NCBI GenBank assembly: GCA_965207065.1
Contig: OZ242260.1
Coordinates: 2,880,001-2,944,000, forward strand
Reading direction: 5' to 3'
DNA from: a bacterium
GTDB lineage: Bacteria; UBA8248
DNA: 64,000 bases
Under the pieces are notes generated by a model that was given only the letters and a program-made list of their open reading frames with translations, was not told the DNA's origin and ran no database searches. Positions 51,404 through 58,143 of this stretch are shown here, piece after piece. The translations under genes were made by a program, and so were the position numbers. Each line of letters begins with the position of its first letter. Position 1 is the first letter of the stretch.

Positions 51404-52474
51404 ATGGATTTTTCCTTATTTTATATCCTGTATCGTCCCGAAGATATGACCGAGGCGCAGGTCCATGAGGATATGCTCGAAGAGAGCATTCTGGCGGACG
51501 AGTTGGGTTACTCGTGCGTCTGGTACGCCGAGCATCACTTCTCACGCGTCGGGATGATCCCCGACCCCCTCCTCATCTGCGCCGCGGTGGCGCAAAAGAC
51601 GAAAAAAATCCACGTGGGCACGGCCATTTCCATCATGTCGTTTCACGATCCCATAAGGCTGGCCGAGCAGGCCGCCATGGTGGATCTCCTGAGCGGCGGC
51701 AGGCTGGAGCTGGGCATCGGGCGCGGCTCCCAGCCCAAGGAGTTCCAGGGTTTCGGCGCGAAGCCGTCGGAAAGCCGCGAGCGCTTAAAAGAAGGTCTCC
51801 ACATTCTCTCCCGCCTTCTCGAAGGGCAGAAGGTGACGTTCGAGGGCCGGCATCACCAGTGCGCGGACGTGGAAATCTTCCCCAAGCCCCTCCAAAGGCC
51901 GCGCCCGCCCATCTGGCTGGCGGGAACGAGTCCCGAAACCTACACTTATGCGGGCGAGAACGGCTTCAAGGTGATGGCCTCGGCCGGCTTCACGGGGCCT
52001 GAGGTTTATAAGCAAAAGTTCGGGCTTTACGAGGACGCCATCAGGAGATCGGGCGGCGACCCCGCCGGTATCGACAGACCCCTGGTTCACCACATCCACG
52101 TGTGCGATGCGGCGGATGCGGAGGAATGCTTCGACCTCACGGTGGAGGGCGAGGGCGAGTACCTGCGCTACCGGGCGAAGATGAACGAGGTGGAAATGCC
52201 CGAGGATGAGGCGAAGCACCTGAAGCGCAACTGGAGTTATGAGCTGGACGTCGCCGAGATTGTCAGGGGCGGCGGCATCATTGCCGATCCGGAGGCCGTG
52301 GCGGAGGATATCTGCAGGCTGCGCGATGATTATGGGGTCAATCACGTCATTCTGGCGCCCTGGCGCGGGCCGGACCACGCCGCGGTGATGCGCTCGATAG
52401 AGAGCTTCGCCAGTGACGTCATGCCGCTGGTGAACGCCACCGCGCCCGTCGGCTCGGGTGGCAGTCAGTCTTGA
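51404..52474 (+). CDS. Luciferase-like (LLM class) flavin-dependent oxidoreductase A
   Basis: ADELGY..VWYAEHHF, P.RLAEQ.A.VD.LS.GRLELG.GRG and FPKP.Q.PRPPIW. Confidence 0.92.
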   Translation: MDFSLFYILYRPEDMTEAQVHEDMLEESILADELGYSCVWYAEHHFSRVGMIPDPLLICAAVAQKTKKIHVGTAISIMSFHDPIRLAEQAAMVDLLSGGRLELGIGRGSQPKEFQGFGAKPSESRERLKEGLHILSRLLEGQKVTFEGRHHQCADVEIFPKPLQRPRPPIWLAGTSPETYTYAGENGFKVMASAGFTGPEVYKQKFGLYEDAIRRSGGDPAGIDRPLVHHIHVCDAADAEECFDLTVEGEGEYLRYRAKMNEVEMPEDEAKHLKRNWSYELDVAEIVRGGGIIADPEAVAEDICRLRDDYGVNHVILAPWRGPDHAAVMRSIESFASDVMPLVNATAPVGSGGSQS

Positions 52475-52522
52475 AGCCTTGAAGGTTTCTTTCTTGTCTT
52501 AAAAATCAGGAGGCGCTTTGTC

Positions 52523-53503
52523 GTGGGTATGAGCTTTAGTTTGCATCTGGTGCCGGATGACATCCGGGTCGTGGCGGAGCGCTCGAAATACGCCGAGGAC
52601 AACGGATTCGAGCAGGTGTGGATAGCGGAGAGCCATCTCACCTGCCGGGATCACAACATCGCGCTCGCCCTGGCGATCGAGAAAACCTCGCATGTGAAAA
52701 TCGGCCCCGGCGTGACGAACCCGGTCCTGCACGACGACAGCGTCGCGGCGAGCGCCATCGCCACGCTCGATGAACTATCAGGCGGCCGGGTGCTGTTCGG
52801 CATTGGCTCGGGCGATACGCCCGTCTATACGCTGGGCAAGAAGATGGCCCGGCTCGCGCGGATGCGCGAATCCATAGCGGCCATACGCGCGTTCACGCGC
52901 GGCGAGACGGTGGAATACGCCGAGGGCGTGAACGTAAACATGTGGTGTGAGCGGGATATCCCCATCTACACCTCCGCCGAGGGTCCCCGGACGCTCTCCA
53001 TGTCGGCTGAAGTCGCGGACGGCGTCATCGTAGGCTCGGGCGTCTACCAGGAGACGGTGGACTGGGTGATGAAGTATCTGAACGAGGGGATGGAGAATCG
53101 CGACTCCTCTCTGGGCGAGATGGACATCATATTCGGCGCGGTCGTCTCGGTGGATACCGACAGCGTGCGCGCTCGCGAGAAGGTGCGGGCGCGGGTGGCG
53201 AACCGGGCGCACCACAACTTCCGCATGACGCTCGACTCGGTGCCCGACCCGTACAAGCCCGAAATCAAACAACTTCTGGACAACTTCGACGTGAGCAACT
53301 GGCGGGATCCCAAGCACGTGCCGCTCATTACCGACTACATCCTGGACCGCTTCACCATCACGGGAACGCCCGAGGAATGCGTCGACCGCATCCAGGAGAT
53401 CGAGTCCTACGGCGTCAAGAGCATCATGATCGACCCCCCGAACCAGGATTTCGACGAATCTCTCAAAATGTTCACCGAAGAGGTTTTGCCCAAGTGCGTA
53501 TGA
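52523..53503 (+). CDS. LLM class oxidoreductase, Mer/F420-dependent-like
   Basis: GFEQVWIAESH, IGPGVTNP, ATLDELSGGR..GIGSGD, GPRTL....ADGVI and GTPEEC. Confidence 0.85.
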   Translation: MGMSFSLHLVPDDIRVVAERSKYAEDNGFEQVWIAESHLTCRDHNIALALAIEKTSHVKIGPGVTNPVLHDDSVAASAIATLDELSGGRVLFGIGSGDTPVYTLGKKMARLARMRESIAAIRAFTRGETVEYAEGVNVNMWCERDIPIYTSAEGPRTLSMSAEVADGVIVGSGVYQETVDWVMKYLNEGMENRDSSLGEMDIIFGAVVSVDTDSVRAREKVRARVANRAHHNFRMTLDSVPDPYKPEIKQLLDNFDVSNWRDPKHVPLITDYILDRFTITGTPEECVDRIQEIESYGVKSIMIDPPNQDFDESLKMFTEEVLPKCV

Positions 53504-53551
53504 CCGCATCCGGGGCGTAATCGACCGCCTTATTCATAAGAGGAACCCAAC

Positions 53552-53950
53552 ATGGCGCTGATACCCGAATCTCATGCCGGCATTCTCGACACAAAGGCCC
53601 TCCTGTACCTGGGCACCCAGAACAAGGACGGATCCCCCCAGGTCTCTCCCGTATGGTTCGGCACCAATGGCGACATCATCGAGGTCAATTCGGCCAAAGG
53701 CCGACTGAAGGACCTCAACATGCGCGCGAGGTCCAAGGTTTCCATCGCCATCGTCGACCCCGAAAACGCCTACAGGTGGGTGGGGATTCAGGGCACGGTG
53801 GTGGAGATTACCGAAAACGGGGCGGAAGAGCATATCGACGCCTTGGCGAACAAGTATCTGGGCGTGGACAGCTATCCGAACCGCCAGGCGGGACAGGTGC
53901 GCGTCATCTACCGCATCCGGGCGGACAAGGTGTTCACGATGGGTGCGTAA
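53552..53950 (+). CDS. PPOX class (split-barrel) probable F420-dependent oxidoreductase
   Basis: T..KDGSPQVSPVW, GR.K..N, DP.N.YR and ID.LA.KY.G...YP. Confidence 0.88.
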   Translation: MALIPESHAGILDTKALLYLGTQNKDGSPQVSPVWFGTNGDIIEVNSAKGRLKDLNMRARSKVSIAIVDPENAYRWVGIQGTVVEITENGAEEHIDALANKYLGVDSYPNRQAGQVRVIYRIRADKVFTMGA

Positions 53951-53997
53951 GACGCCCTGCGCACCGGATTACCATGTACGGGACGGAGACCTGATAG

Positions 53998-55053
53998 ATG
54001 AAATTCTCGCTTTTCTACATTCCTGCCTGTCAGGAGGGCGAAAGCTACAAGCACGAGTTCGACCAGTTGATCGAACAATGCGAGGTGGCCGACGAACTCG
54101 GCTACGAGGCCGTGTTCCTGGCCGAGCACCACTTCTCCCGCGTGGGCATGTGCCCCGACGCCCTGATGGTCGCGCTCGCCATCGCTCAGAGAACCAAAAA
54201 GATCAGAATCGGCACCGCCATCTGCATCATGCCGTTCCACAATCCGGTGCGCTTGGCCGAACAGGCCGCCCTGGTCGACGTGCTGAGCGGCGGGCGTCTG
54301 GAACTGGGCGTCGGCAGGGGTTCCCAGCCCAAGGAATTCCAGGGCTTCAACATCTCCCCCTCCGAGAGCAGAGAGAAGATGCAGGAGGGCCTCGAGGTGA
54401 TGACCCGCCTGCTGGAGGGGGAATGCCTCACCTTCCACGGGAAGCACTACAGCTGCATCGACGTGGAGATTTTCCCGAAACCCATCCAGAAGCCGCGTCC
54501 TCCCATCTGGCTGGCCGGCACGAGTCCCGAAACATACGTCTTCGCCGGCCAGAGGGGGTACAACATCATGGCGTCGGGCACCTTCAAGGGGCCTGACGTA
54601 TATCTGGAGAAGATGGAGTTGTTCAACGAAACCGTGCGCAACCGGGGCGGCGACCCGAGTGTTTATCCCGCCCTCATGGCGCACCACGTCCATGTGTGCG
54701 ACGACCCCGAGCACGCCTGGCGGCAGATCGAGCCCTCCGAATCGTGGTATCTCTCCTACCGCAGCGCGGTGAATTCCATCGAGATGCCGCTCGAGGAGAA
54801 AGAAGCCCTCAAGCGCAACTGGAGCTACGACGTCGACATCCGCCAGGTCATCGAGGGGGGCGGCGTCATCGGCCCGCCGGAGAAGGTGATCGCCGACCTG
54901 AAGCGGCTCCAGACGGAGTTCCGGGTGAATCACATCATGATCTTCGTGCTGCGCGGCATCGCCCAGGACGAGGCGATTCAGTCGATAGAGCGGTTTGCGA
55001 AAGAGGTGATGCCCGCGTTCGCCGAAGAGCGCGCGGCGAGTTCAAGCGAATAA
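53998..55053 (+). CDS. Luciferase-like (LLM class) flavin-dependent oxidoreductase B, paralogue of 51404-52474
   Basis: Same LLM motifs. Shares AEHHFSRVGM, GRGSQPKEFQGF, WLAGTSPETY and LKRNWSY with gene A. Confidence 0.92.
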   Translation: MKFSLFYIPACQEGESYKHEFDQLIEQCEVADELGYEAVFLAEHHFSRVGMCPDALMVALAIAQRTKKIRIGTAICIMPFHNPVRLAEQAALVDVLSGGRLELGVGRGSQPKEFQGFNISPSESREKMQEGLEVMTRLLEGECLTFHGKHYSCIDVEIFPKPIQKPRPPIWLAGTSPETYVFAGQRGYNIMASGTFKGPDVYLEKMELFNETVRNRGGDPSVYPALMAHHVHVCDDPEHAWRQIEPSESWYLSYRSAVNSIEMPLEEKEALKRNWSYDVDIRQVIEGGGVIGPPEKVIADLKRLQTEFRVNHIMIFVLRGIAQDEAIQSIERFAKEVMPAFAEERAASSSE

Positions 55054-55077
55054 CATCGGTTTCGAGGAGAACGGAGA

Positions 55078-55677
55078 ATGTGGATATCCCCATTAAGGCT
55101 GAATGACGCCCAGGAGCCCGCGCGCGGGATTCTCGAGGGCATCCGGGCGAAACGGGGCGCCGTGCCCAAGCTGCTGCTCACGATGGCGCGCAGGCCCCAG
55201 GTCCTGAACGGACGCCAGACGATGAACATGGCCGTCCACGGCGGGAATTCGACGCTGGGCCAGAGGCGCGAGGAACTGATCTCCTACTACGTGGCCACCA
55301 TCGGCGGGTGCTATGGCTGAACGATGAACCATGGCCAGGCTTTCCGTGCTGAAAGCGGCGACGACGTAACGCTGGCCGACGTGGCCACCGTGGTGACGGA
55401 CAGGGACAATTCCCCGGTGCTCGACGATGCGGACAAGACGATGCTCGCATTCGCCGAAAAACTCACGTTCGACCACTACGCGATGAGCGAGGCGGACCTG
55501 GACGCGCTACGCGAGGCGGGCTTCTCGGATGAGAACGTGCTGGACATCATCGGTTCCGTCTCGTACCGGAACATGAGCAACCGGCTGAACCTGGCGCTCG
55601 GCCTCGATGCCGTCGAACCCGAAGGCCCGGACGAGTTGATGGAGGTGGTGCGCTTCTCCCGGACCGCTCGGGCTTAA
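55078..55677 (+). CDS. AhpD/carboxymuconolactone decarboxylase-like peroxidase-related protein; probable selenoprotein (C78-Y-G-U81)
   Basis: ORFs 55078-55320 and 55324-55677 are in the same frame and joined by TGA at 55318-55320. The joint product has RELI...VA...CxxU...H followed by FAEKLT, DLDALREAGFSDE and NM.NR....LG, the usual pattern of this family. Confidence 0.85.
55333..55377 (+). promoter_or_regulatory. Candidate bacterial SECIS element
   Basis: GCTTTC-(CGTGCT)-GAAAGC hairpin at 55339-55356. The loop starts 25 nt after the TGA and has GT at loop positions 2-3. Lower stem GGCCAG/CTGGCC. Confidence 0.7.
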
Positions 55678-55799
55678 GAGACATATATCCGTTTGCCGGC
55701 CGAGCAAGTCCGGGCCGGTGATTATCAGGCAAAAAAGTTTGCCACCGTTCATTTGCGGCGCGCCCAGGCCGCGAAACAAAGCAGAAAGGAAGAGATTCC

Positions 55800-56570
55800 A
55801 TGTCAGAGCTCACCATCCGTCCGCTGAACTGCGGAACCATTCACACGGATTACTCCAATATGGTGTATTGGACGAACTTCGGGACGAAACTGGAGATTCC
55901 CTCGTTCATCTACATGATCGAGGGGGCGAAGGACCACGACGGCAAGGACGTGAAGGTCGTGGTCGACACCAGTTTTCTGGACCCCGAGCGCGGCGGCGCC
56001 CCCTGGCCCGCGAGCCGGGAGCCCGGCCAGGGCGTTCGCGAACAGTTAGAGGGCGCGGGCTGGAAGCCTGAGGATGTGGACATCCTCATCCTCACGCACT
56101 TGCACTGGGACCACTCCCAGAACTGCGACCTGTTCACCAACGCGATCAAATACGTGTGGGCGGAGGAGCTTCAATACTCCATGTGCCCGGTCGCGCTGCA
56201 ATCCAAGCCCTATGACGCGCCGATCCACCCCAACACCCGCTGGCCGGTGATCGCGCAGCAGGGCATCATCTTCGAGCCGATCTGGAAGGACAATACCGAG
56301 ATCGTGCCGGGCGTCACCTACTTCCACACGCCGGGCCACACGCCGGGGCACTGCTCGGTCGCCGTCGAGACGCGCGTGGGCACCTACGTCATCGCCGCCG
56401 ACGTCATCCAGATCAACGAAGGCCTGGAGCGCCGCGTTCCCGCCGGCCAGATGTCGAGCATGCGCGACGCGATGGATTCCATCCATAAGTGCATCGAGCG
56501 CGCCACGAAGGAGGAATACATCCTGCCCGGCCATGAAATCTCGGTGCTCGAGAAGGAAGTCTACCCGTAA
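55800..56570 (+). CDS. Metallo-beta-lactamase fold hydrolase, N-acyl homoserine lactonase-like
   Basis: THLHWDH, TPGHTPGH, AAD and LPGHE. Confidence 0.88.
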   Translation: MSELTIRPLNCGTIHTDYSNMVYWTNFGTKLEIPSFIYMIEGAKDHDGKDVKVVVDTSFLDPERGGAPWPASREPGQGVREQLEGAGWKPEDVDILILTHLHWDHSQNCDLFTNAIKYVWAEELQYSMCPVALQSKPYDAPIHPNTRWPVIAQQGIIFEPIWKDNTEIVPGVTYFHTPGHTPGHCSVAVETRVGTYVIAADVIQINEGLERRVPAGQMSSMRDAMDSIHKCIERATKEEYILPGHEISVLEKEVYP

Positions 56571-56624
56571 GAGCGGATAACGCTCGGCGCCAAGAGCCGA
56601 GTGTTTGCAAAGGGAGGAATCAGG

Positions 56625-57002
56625 ATGGCGATGAGCGAGCGGGGCAGGGCCTTGTACGAGGAGATGAAGGCGGCGCGCGGGTTTATCTACCCGGCGTATG
56701 AACTCCTGTGCGAGGTGGACCCCGAGCTATTGGAGAACTACGAGAACCTCAAAAACCACATCATGAAGAAACAGGGCCCCTTTCACGAGAAGTACAAGGA
56801 GCTCTTCATCGCGGTGGCGAGCGCCTCGCGCAACCCCTCTGATACCGAGGGCATCAAGAACCACTTGAAGAAAGCGCTGCAGCTCGGCGCGACCGTCGAG
56901 GAGGCGACGGAGGCCCTCGAGTGCATGCTGCCCCCCTGCGGGATGACGGCGCTCGTGGCGGGCTGCACGCAGCTCAAAGAAGTGATCGACGAAGGGTATT
57001 AG
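56625..57002 (+). CDS. Carboxymuconolactone decarboxylase family protein (no CxxC)
   Basis: KYKEL..IA and H.KKAL.LGAT.EE..EALE. RBS GGGAGG. Confidence 0.8.
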   Translation: MAMSERGRALYEEMKAARGFIYPAYELLCEVDPELLENYENLKNHIMKKQGPFHEKYKELFIAVASASRNPSDTEGIKNHLKKALQLGATVEEATEALECMLPPCGMTALVAGCTQLKEVIDEGY

Positions 57003-57023
57003 AGCAAGGCCGAAAGTGAGCCG

Positions 57024-57060
57024 ACCGGGGGAGTGCGCGACGCTCCCCCGGTTTTTGTTT
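57024..57060 (+). terminator. Rho-independent terminator closing the LLM/selenoprotein operon
   Basis: ACCGGGGGAGTG/CGCTCCCCCGGT hairpin followed by TTTTGTTT. Confidence 0.75.
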
Positions 57061-57218
57061 GTTATTTGCGACCGAAGAGGGAGCGATTGCCGAGCGTGGG
57101 GGTGCGATGGTTTTGTAGCCGGACAGGCGCAGGGGACTGTCCGCTGCTTCCGCCTGCTACAAGGTGAAAACAGGTATCCGTCATGCTTTCATCTCGGGTT
57201 GCGCAGATAACATAATAG

Positions 57219-57235
57219 ATGTATATAATATACAT
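57219..57235. promoter_or_regulatory. NsrR-type operator
   Basis: Perfect palindrome ATGTATAT-A-ATATACAT resembling the GATGYAT-N5-ATRCATC NsrR consensus, about 20 bp upstream of the Rrf2 gene. Confidence 0.75.
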
Positions 57236-57256
57236 GTTAATCGGGAGGGACACTCG

Positions 57257-57697
57257 ATGAGGCTCACCGTTCAGACAGACTATGCACTCAGGATGATGAT
57301 GCAACTGGCTTGCCGTACTGATGGCCTGGTGACGATCCACGAGATTGCGGAGCGGTACGGGATATCAAAGAACCATCTGGTGAAGGTCGCGCACAGGCTG
57401 GGCCGCGCGGGGTTCATCGAAACGATCCGGGGCCGAAGCGGCGGCCTGAGGCTCGCCAAGCCGGCGGAGGAAATCTCCGTCGGGACAGTGGCGAGGCACA
57501 CCGAACAAGGCAGCGCCCTCGTCGAGTGTTTTCCGGGCGGAAGCGGAAAGTGCCTGGTCAAGCCGCACTGCCGGCTCAAGAGCGTTCTGGCCGAGGCGCA
57601 GGAAGCCTTTTTCACCGTTCTCGATCGCTACACCATCCACGACCTGGTGAAACGCAACCCCGGACTGCTCGCCTTGCTTGTCGGAGACGCCGCATGA
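57257..57697 (+). CDS. nsrR: Rrf2 family transcriptional regulator, NsrR-like
   Basis: TDYALR, ISKNHLVKV, RGRSGG.RLA and three cysteines (ECF....C.....CRLK). Confidence 0.85.
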   Translation: MRLTVQTDYALRMMMQLACRTDGLVTIHEIAERYGISKNHLVKVAHRLGRAGFIETIRGRSGGLRLAKPAEEISVGTVARHTEQGSALVECFPGGSGKCLVKPHCRLKSVLAEAQEAFFTVLDRYTIHDLVKRNPGLLALLVGDAA

Positions 57698-58143
57698 ACA
57701 CGACGCATCTCAAGATCGTAGGAGAACGCCGGGCCGGAATCCAGGCGAAAGCCGCCGCGATGGGGGTCGACGAGGCGTACGTCTCCGAGCTCGTGAATAC
57801 CTTCTACAGCCGCATCCGGGAAGACCGGCTGCTCGGGCCGATTTTCGATGAGGCCATCGGCGACAGGTGGGGGCTTCACCTCGAGAAGATGAAGGATTTC
57901 TGGGCGACGGTGGCCTTGGGCGCCGGTCGCTACTCGGGAGAACCGATTCCGGCCCACAAGAAACTCGTGGAGGTCCGGCCCCGGCATTTCGACGAATGGC
58001 TCGAACTGTTCGAGGAAACCCTGCAGGACACGGCGCCCACGCCGGAGGCGGCCGCCTATTTCATGGGCCACGCCAGGCAGATCGGACGAGGGCTGCAGAT
58101 CGCCATGTTCGGCGCATCAGGTTTCGGGAGGGCAGGCGCATGA
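57694..58143 (+). CDS. Group III truncated haemoglobin
   Basis: LV.TFY.RIR.D.LLGPIF, W..HL.KM.DFW, Y.G.P..H and HF.EWL.LF. Confidence 0.88.
   Translation: MNTTHLKIVGERRAGIQAKAAAMGVDEAYVSELVNTFYSRIREDRLLGPIFDEAIGDRWGLHLEKMKDFWATVALGAGRYSGEPIPAHKKLVEVRPRHFDEWLELFEETLQDTAPTPEAAAYFMGHARQIGRGLQIAMFGASGFGRAGA

Follow-up and report, generated by a model that had tools for sequence, protein, structure and literature searches.

An in-frame UGA as the probable selenocysteine codon of an AhpD-like protein encoded in a conserved oxidoreductase gene cluster

Overview

Positions 55078-55677 of the window (the whole 64,000-nucleotide stretch of DNA that was analysed) very probably form one gene for a 199-residue AhpD-like protein in which the UGA at codon 81 is predicted, from sequence comparison, to be decoded as selenocysteine (Sec), and the gene would be a genuine selenoprotein gene. 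It is a new, unannotated member of the AhpD-like CxxU family, and neither its family nor its motif nor its mode of decoding is new. Sec81 had been proposed in a sequence-only reading of the same DNA, and the proposal is supported by the Sec machinery of the genome, the conservation of the TGA, the Cys/Sec alignment column and the independent contigs, all of which agree.

Reading frame and active-site motif

Direct reading gives a start ATG at 55078 and a stop TAA at 55675-55677 on the plus strand, which also carries the Shine-Dalgarno-like sequence, the motif codons, the hairpins and the four neighbouring genes described below, and between them runs a single frame of 199 codons with one internal TGA. 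The TGA (55318-55320) is codon 81, and 118 further codons follow in frame. The in-frame UGA at the redox site, the coordinates and the 199-residue length given by the sequence-only reading were all confirmed by reading the sequence, as was the 118-codon continuation by translation. Under translation table 11, the frame is divided into ORFs of 80 and 117 amino acids. The assignment of the full interval to an AhpD-like (TIGR01926) selenoprotein draws on the translation, the family profile, the orthologues and a structural model.

The stretch TGC TAT GGC TGA ACG ATG AAC CAT at 55309-55332 is translated as C78-Y-G-U81-T-M-N-H85. The TGC codon of Cys78 (55309-55311) provides the first residue of the CxxU motif, the TGA would supply Sec81 where CxxCxxxH has its second Cys, as suggested by orthologues, Cys homologues and contigs, and the codon of His85 occupies 55330-55332. 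Together with Glu66 (codon 55273-55275), Cys78 and His85 fall on invariant columns of the homologue alignment. Ahead of the gene, a Shine-Dalgarno-like GAGGAG (55064-55069) was read directly at a spacing of 8 nt from the ATG. It is found at the same place in 18 of 19 orthologue upstream stretches, and in the remaining one (L026) AAGGAG lies upstream of that place by a few bases.

Conservation of the UGA codon

Orthologues were searched in 41 genomes, comprising the genome of the window (G000) and 40 relatives. An orthologue with 86-99% identity was found at 23 places in 22 genomes, namely G000 and 21 of the 22 same-genus genomes, with a single in-frame TGA at every place. The one same-genus genome in which no orthologue was found is G018, which is 79% complete. 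Across GTDB species genomes, 25 loci were detected, all in metagenome-assembled genomes (MAGs) titled Nitrospinota, Nitrospinaceae or 'bacterium'; 21 of these loci largely repeat genomes already in the 41-genome set, and the other four are the most distant (74-75% identity). The orthologue sequences that were read number 23 (19 close and the four most distant; 74-99% identity), 22 of them besides the window copy. All 19 close orthologues have the TGA at codon 81 and the full frame, one of them with an 8-codon deletion far downstream, and both the TGA and the full frame are kept in all four distant ones. Codon 81 is never TAA or TAG in the 23 sequences.

In the public protein collection, 25 relatives were found at E <= 1e-5. 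Ten are full-length with 28-42% identity, and eight of these ten were taken into the homologue alignment. In all eight, both motif columns hold Cys and position 85 is His. The homologue comparison that had been advised for codon 81 therefore returned either Cys (8/8) or TGA (23/23). The conservation of the TGA is far beyond chance because the codon is kept in 23/23 orthologues, is never replaced by TAA or TAG, and lies exactly on the invariant Cys column. The position of such a codon on a redox Cys column is, on the evidence of the alignment, the signature of Sec/Cys pairs.

A pseudogene, or a sequencing or assembly error at the TGA, is effectively refuted. The same codon appears in 23/23 orthologues from many assemblies at 74-99% identity, and synonymous variation exceeds non-synonymous variation in both halves of the gene, with 1.9 versus 0.56 types per codon upstream of the TGA and 1.8 versus 1.0 downstream. 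Moreover, a contig from an independent DNA run spans 54800-56000 with 20 differences, of which 19 are listed, none at 55318-55320, and a 153-nt RNA-library contig over 55267-55418 has no substitution. The runs were compared as contigs, which carry no depth, strand or transcript ends, and the RNA libraries may hold DNA; RNA runs X15 and X16 seem to be duplicate records of one data set, and stretches without RNA-library cover are uninformative. TGC or TGT in place of the TGA, which in raw reads had been named as a refuting finding, is among the listed differences of neither contig.

The remaining 15 of the 25 public relatives are C-terminal fragments (109-154 amino acids) of the orthologue group, and the five fragments whose sequence was read all begin at Met83. 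The public sets hold the orthologue group only in this form, which agrees with the earlier claim that standard pipelines fragment the gene. The same fragments could speak for a split gene, in which translation stops at the UGA at 55318 and a 117-residue product is restarted by translational coupling at ATG 55324, with the stop and the ATG 3 nt apart. This arrangement is, however, highly improbable. Gene callers start at the ATG of codon 83, but this ATG is not conserved as a restart site, since it is replaced in 5 of 23 orthologues (by ATA, TTA, CTT, CTA and CTC) and is absent in the TGA-bearing paralogues. There is no Shine-Dalgarno-like sequence ahead of ATG 55324, the break would fall within the catalytic CxxCxxxH of a single-domain fold, and all Cys homologues are single chains. 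The stop is also always TGA in the 23 orthologues, with no TAA or TAG. The pseudogene, sequencing-error and split-gene readings were thus rejected on the conservation of the TGA, the lost ATG at codon 83, the coding type of variation and the clean contigs.

Selenocysteine machinery

The genome encodes SelA (517 bits), SelB with a winged-helix domain, and SelD, whose own frame has one internal TGA, and it contains a tRNA-SeC whose anticodon is TCA. The genome search for selA, selB, selC and selD that had been suggested as a check was therefore positive for all four components. SelA was found in 35 of the 41 genomes searched. Among the 34 genomes with TGA-bearing homologues it is present in 33, the exception being the 79% complete G018, and the homologue in G038, counted as the one SelA-less genome with a match, is without an in-frame stop.

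These observations bear on a reading in which the UGA is passed without selenium, either by near-cognate insertion of Trp or Cys or as regulated termination with a mostly truncated product. Such a reading has very little probability. The complete Sec machinery, the co-occurrence of TGA-bearing homologues with SelA together with the stop-free homologue of G038, and the location of the codon on the redox Cys column all stand against it, as does the conserved hairpin with suppressed synonymous change after the codon. Decoding of UGA codon 81 as Sec would be carried out by the SelA, SelB, SelD and tRNA-Sec of the genome, and the directing signal would be a stem-loop that lies within the coding sequence shortly after the UGA and is most probably the one at 55334-55359.

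Candidate SECIS hairpins

According to the available text of PMC13188914, the bacterial SECIS consensus (bSECISearch model) has an upper stem 4-16 bp long that closes an apical loop of 3-9 nt with a G at loop position 1 or 2, a UGA-to-loop distance of 16-37 nt and an energy of <= -7.5 kcal/mol. The scanner used here is a re-implementation of the consensus as summarised in that text. It found one passing element after the TGA, the hairpin H2 at 55334-55359, which is the best SECIS candidate in view of its agreement with the consensus, its conserved pairing and its place in a synonymous-variation minimum.

The lower stem of H2 has 3 bp (55334-55336 with 55357-55359), followed on the 5' side by an AG bulge of 2 nt, and the upper stem has 6 bp (55339-55344 with 55351-55356) closing the loop CGTGCT (55345-55350). 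The spacing is 24 nt, G and T occupy loop positions 2 and 3, and the energy is -10.6 kcal/mol. The first loop base is the 25th after the TGA, and the hairpin with a GT-containing loop that was claimed to begin its loop 25 nt downstream is present as described. Compared with the SECIS of the E. coli fdhF type, H2 agrees with all four constraints of the consensus, as far as the available text gives them (PMC13188914). In contrast, its loop is not of the GGTC type, and it has the 5'-side bulge and an overlapping alternative hairpin; H2 is a candidate SECIS.

Taken alone, H2 is weak evidence and is not above chance. Of 1500 random TGA triplets of the genome, 295 (19.7%, about 20%) pass the consensus test, and in 111 (7.4%) a hairpin reaches -10.6 kcal/mol or lower. 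Shuffled sequences fold as well as the 91-nt region (z = -0.38), and fold energy alone thus cannot support a SECIS. When 54000-57000 was compared with Rfam at E values up to 10, just a chance snoRNA match appeared, which is uninformative on bacterial SECIS elements.

Conservation was counted over the 14 distinct sequences that the 23 orthologues represent. The pair cells of H2 are paired in 96.8% of cases, and the changes comprise one compensatory G-C to A-U, one G-C to G-T wobble and one mismatch. The compensatory pair comes from a single clade, to which the mismatch also belongs, and covariation lends thin support to H2. In 13 of the 14 sequences, no local structure has a lower energy than H2. 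The variable synonymous sites are few and are located in the bulge or loop of H2 or outside the hairpin. H2 lies where synonymous variation in the gene is lowest: when 187 windows of 13 codons are ranked, the bottom 12 all start at codons 76-87, and the post-TGA minimum has 0.85 synonymous types per codon versus 1.9 upstream and 1.8 downstream.

An alternative hairpin, H1 (55330-55348; CATGG with CCGTG, 9-nt loop), is mutually exclusive with H2. It is 100% paired, with a T-G to C-G change in 3 sequences. H1 is weak (-3.0 to -4.8 kcal/mol) and departs from the consensus in its spacing of 14 nt and in lacking a G in the first two loop positions. Distant TGA-bearing homologues have a clear hairpin at the position of H1. 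It begins at the His codon, and its loop, GTC for example, follows the UGA by 17-18 nt. The orthologues are too little varied for covariation to separate H1 from H2. H2 is favoured over H1 as the SECIS of the selenoprotein gene, and H1, or a switch between H1 and H2, may apply.

When applied to Sec-type UGAs, the scanner passes 15 of 22. The seven misses are three of the four UGAs in two UxxU paralogues and the four 74-75% orthologues, which are missed because the 6-nt flank of the scanner cuts off the lower stem. In these four orthologues the scanner gives H2 an energy of -1.7 kcal/mol, and the extended version of the hairpin reaches -5.7 to -10.8 kcal/mol.

Family, fold and relay residues

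For the family profiles and the PDB sequence comparison, Cys was written for Sec81. The protein matches TIGR01926 ('peroxidase-related', AhpD-like) with 108.8 bits versus the curated cut-off of 81.8, and the match spans residues 2-177 on profile positions 2-174 of 178. A DNA-level match to the same profile (101 bits) is also over the cut-off. The match to Pfam CMD (PF02627) is borderline, with 23.2 bits versus a gathering score of 23, and is a superfamily-level assignment only that does not imply decarboxylase function.

The AlphaFold2 model, built from a 9-sequence alignment, is all-helical with a pLDDT of 83.5 and a pTM of 0.82, and the fold it predicts is the AhpD/CMD helical domain. In a Foldseek search with the model, the best matches are 3c1l, 2pfx, 2prr and 6k40 (TM 0.73-0.76), and the true CMD structures 2q0t and 4g9q match poorly (E 0.18-0.29). 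The closest PDB sequence is 6k40, the Deinococcus radiodurans AhpD (E 1.6e-18), whose CVYC...H is aligned to C-Y-G with the Cys written for Sec. The Cys-type AhpD-core proteins (6k40, 3c1l, 2pfx, 2prr and 2oyo) share the fold, length, motif and Glu with the window protein at E values of 1.6e-18 to 6.5e-13 and just 24-33% identity. In contrast to their CxxC, the window protein has CxxU.

Mycobacterium tuberculosis AhpD (1knc/1gu9) has a proton relay that consists of Glu118, Cys130, His132 (or Tyr), Cys133 and His137, as listed in the available part of PMC3141380. Profile positions 65-104 correspond to chain residues 107-146 of 1gu9, and E66, C78, U81 and H85 have a spacing identical to that of Glu118, Cys130, Cys133 and His137 around the same thioredoxin-like motif. 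The resemblance is distant, with a Foldseek E of 0.37-0.39 and a TM below 0.6. Moreover, the window protein differs from M. tuberculosis AhpD at the fifth relay position, where Gly80 stands for His132, and in having Sec for Cys133 and no ahpC neighbour.

Paralogues and other candidates

Ten of the 12 TIGR01926-like places in the genome are TGA-bearing, including a UxxU form; one of the TGA-bearing places is located at 2851468-2852016 of contig C1 of G000, about 28 kb ahead of the window. A sister paralogue family is of the UxxU type, in which both motif cysteines are Sec. Within the 64-kb window, a mechanical search for other TGA-split ORFs gave 178 candidates, of which the 10 with high GC3 were sent to Pfam. 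Nine had no family, one had a SpoU domain on one side of the TGA only, and no further selenoprotein candidate was found among the 10.

The conserved gene cluster

The selenoprotein gene is embedded in a series of co-oriented genes. A PPOX-class F420-dependent oxidoreductase (TIGR03618, 96.3 bits versus a cut-off of 79.05) is encoded at 53552-53950, followed by a luciferase-like monooxygenase at 53998-55053 (Pfam Bac_luciferase, 9.7e-64), whose stop lies 24 nt ahead of the selenoprotein ATG. Downstream are a metallo-beta-lactamase (MBL)-fold hydrolase at 55800-56570 (Pfam Lactamase_B), described as lactonase-like with the NCBIfam lactonase models all below their cut-offs on this product, and a CMD-family gene without CxxC at 56601-57002 (Pfam CMD, 3.1e-09). 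The PPOX, luciferase-like and MBL genes are syntenic in all 25 loci and the CMD-family gene in 24, the 25th locus running out at a contig end, and the gene order PPOX, luciferase-like, selenoprotein, MBL, CMD is the same in 25/25 loci, including those of the 74-75% orthologues. In closer relatives, two more luciferase-like genes are found upstream; 21 of 25 loci have one of these, LLM2.

The cluster may be co-transcribed as an operon. A terminator-like hairpin of 13 pairs followed by a T run (57023-57053) would end its transcript, in a scan whose promoter and terminator counts are not above shuffles (8 terminator-like sites versus a mean of 7.0). A contig of run X20 bridges 54863-55999 and does not demonstrate a single transcript.

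The luciferase-like and PPOX-class oxidoreductases are F420- or FMN-dependent by family. CofD and CofH are above their cut-offs elsewhere in the genome, and F420 is thus plausibly made. In Pfam, the nine neighbouring ORFs between 51404 and 59712 belong to the LLM, PPOX, MBL, CMD, Rrf2, globin-like and M20 families, and no AhpC/Prx is among these nine at the locus. Nor did the cluster show a halogenase or halo-organic gene. The sequence-only reading had placed the gene in a 'catabolic operon', which is overstated, as the term rests on enzyme classes and no neighbour has a known substrate.

Possible catalytic role

In M. tuberculosis AhpD, the second Cys of the motif is the attacking nucleophile. 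By analogy, Sec81, standing in place of the second Cys of C-x-x-C-x-x-x-H, may be the redox nucleophile of an AhpD-type CxxU centre, and its selenolate would make the attack. Sec81 would then form a selenenylsulfide with Cys78, helped by His85 and Glu66, and would be re-reduced by some reductant. The likeliest role would be a reductive one, acting on hydroperoxides or on a disulfide or sulfenate partner that result from the oxidative chemistry of the cluster, because the gene is co-oriented and closely spaced with the PPOX, luciferase-like, lactonase-like and CMD genes. The actual insertion of Sec, the hairpin used, the catalytic cycle and the substrate are all set out here as predictions.

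Alternatively, the gene may encode a real selenoprotein that is not a peroxide- or AhpC-linked reductase, with CxxU serving other chemistry of the cluster such as a Bmp8-like reductive dehalogenation. The debrominase Bmp8 (6ohj/6ohi) matches the fold with a TM of 0.75 at 16% identity and matches the family profile at E 7.6e-10. The conserved cluster, moreover, holds oxidoreductases and a lactonase-like hydrolase with no AhpC nearby, and runs labelled sponge metagenome contain the stretch. On the other hand, the 'peroxidase-related' proteins and the D. radiodurans AhpD are much closer matches, and the cluster shows no halogenase or halo-organic gene, which leaves this role unlikely. Equally doubtful is the more specific view that the CxxU protein works specifically as a catalyst within the conserved cluster, providing a selenol for substrate chemistry, and is not a general antioxidant. 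If it were true, the possible chemistry would be a reductive dehalogenation like that of Bmp8, for which Sec-dependent deiodinases offer an analogy in selenol dehalogenation, or the reduction of a peroxy- or lactone-derived intermediate, and the TGA-bearing paralogues would form a selenium-dependent enzyme family for tailoring or detoxification. The reductive role toward hydroperoxides or a disulfide or sulfenate partner is preferred.

Relation to known selenoproteins

AhpD-like proteins had been named in the sequence-only reading as a reported selenoprotein family, and they have indeed been catalogued since 2005. In the available part of the Sargasso Sea study, AhpD-like COG2128 proteins with CxxU are a new selenoprotein family of 27 sequences (PMC1088965), and in that of the GOS study they are the fourth most abundant prokaryotic selenoprotein family with 299 sequences (PMC2398784). 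The window protein belongs, above the cut-off, to the same HMM family (COG2128/YciW, TIGR01926; 'AhpD-like 1', Sargasso 2005/GOS 2008). As far as the available texts describe that family, it shares CxxU with Sec at the second Cys, one Sec per protein, and a SECIS inside the ORF just downstream, and there is no defining difference. What sets the orthologue group apart is that, in the GTDB species scan, it was found only in MAGs titled Nitrospinota, Nitrospinaceae or 'bacterium'.

Two further families, NF041238 (AhpD_rel_CFYUT) and NF053654 (YciW-related (seleno)protein), also combine the CMD/AhpD fold with CxxU. The window protein is a member of neither, as it scores 27.6 bits versus a cut-off of 175 and 45 bits versus 310, respectively. 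In the available part of the BSepDB paper, Nitrospinota-labelled MAGs have 48-54 selenoprotein genes and are among the richest bacteria (PMC13326102), and the accessible portion of the literature gave nothing further on Nitrospinota selenoproteins. No description of the conserved cluster around the gene was found in the accessible portion of the selenoprotein literature. The gene itself may already be listed in BSepDB or in the supplementary tables of selenoproteome studies.

Significance

The value of the finding for annotation is that, in the public collections searched, the gene and its orthologues are stored as truncated fragments, so that standard pipelines miss both the 199-residue protein and its selenium dependence. 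For the lineage, it adds one case to a documented large selenoproteome in which AhpD-like proteins dominate. Of interest are the function of a conserved oxidoreductase/lactonase cluster that always carries the selenoprotein, and the UxxU sister paralogues.

Gene cluster around the AhpD-like selenoprotein gene

The region at window 51404-57053 looks like one cluster of seven co-oriented genes, with these predicted product classes: a luciferase-like monooxygenase (LLM), a mer-like LLM, a PPOX-class F420 oxidoreductase, another LLM, the selenoprotein, a lactonase-like metallo-beta-lactamase-fold protein, and a CMD-family gene. A strong hairpin resembling a terminator (57023-57053) closes the cluster. 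The synteny of its five-gene core reaches orthologues at the 74-75% level, and both cofD and cofH were found in the source genome (G000). Beyond the cluster, an Rrf2-family regulator ORF (57164-57697) is RirA/NsrR-like with scores under the equivalog cut-offs, and overlaps in a different frame with an ORF that has a weak bacterial-globin match (57526-58143); the start sites of both are putative.

TIGR01926 matches in the source and related genomes

TIGR01926 matches occur at 12 places in the whole source genome, and an in-frame TGA is present in 10 of them. The TGA position was checked in three of these places: the main gene, the UxxU paralogue, and a TIGR01926-like place at C1:478512-479051, which reads C-D-Y-U-L-G-H and is accompanied by a hairpin with a GGTC loop. 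The SelD of this genome is a selenoprotein as well. The related genome G015 has the orthologue of the main gene twice, on two contigs (C3:31036-31632 and C1:3328474-3329070), with identities of 97% and 95% and TGA in both. These two copies may represent a duplication, or may come from mixed strains in a metagenome-assembled genome with 7% contamination.

Paralogues with two in-frame UGA codons

In a family of paralogues that are 44-51% identical, both motif cysteines are replaced by TGA codons, giving G-G-U-Y-G-U-A-M/V-N-H with a UxxU centre. These genes are located outside the window, at C1:1639621-1640184 of the source genome (L030:501-1052), and at L029:501-1076 and L031:501-1064 (minus strand). 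Places of this kind with two TGAs number 21, and are spread over 21 of the 41 genomes searched. AhpD-like/TIGR01926 entries in the review tables consulted contain one Sec, in CxxU only.

SECIS-like hairpins

The distant TGA-bearing homologues L029, L032-L034, and L036 have SECIS-like hairpins that start at the His codon of CxxUxxxH. Their 5' arm, CAC GG., pairs with the codons for a conserved Leu/Phe-Arg. The loop is GTC, GTT or GGC and lies 17-18 nt past the UGA. The RNA signal thus occupies bases that also encode the catalytic motif. The UxxU genes have one downstream hairpin, with its loop 16-17 nt past the second UGA and 23-26 nt past the first, distances at which one SECIS could act on both UGAs.
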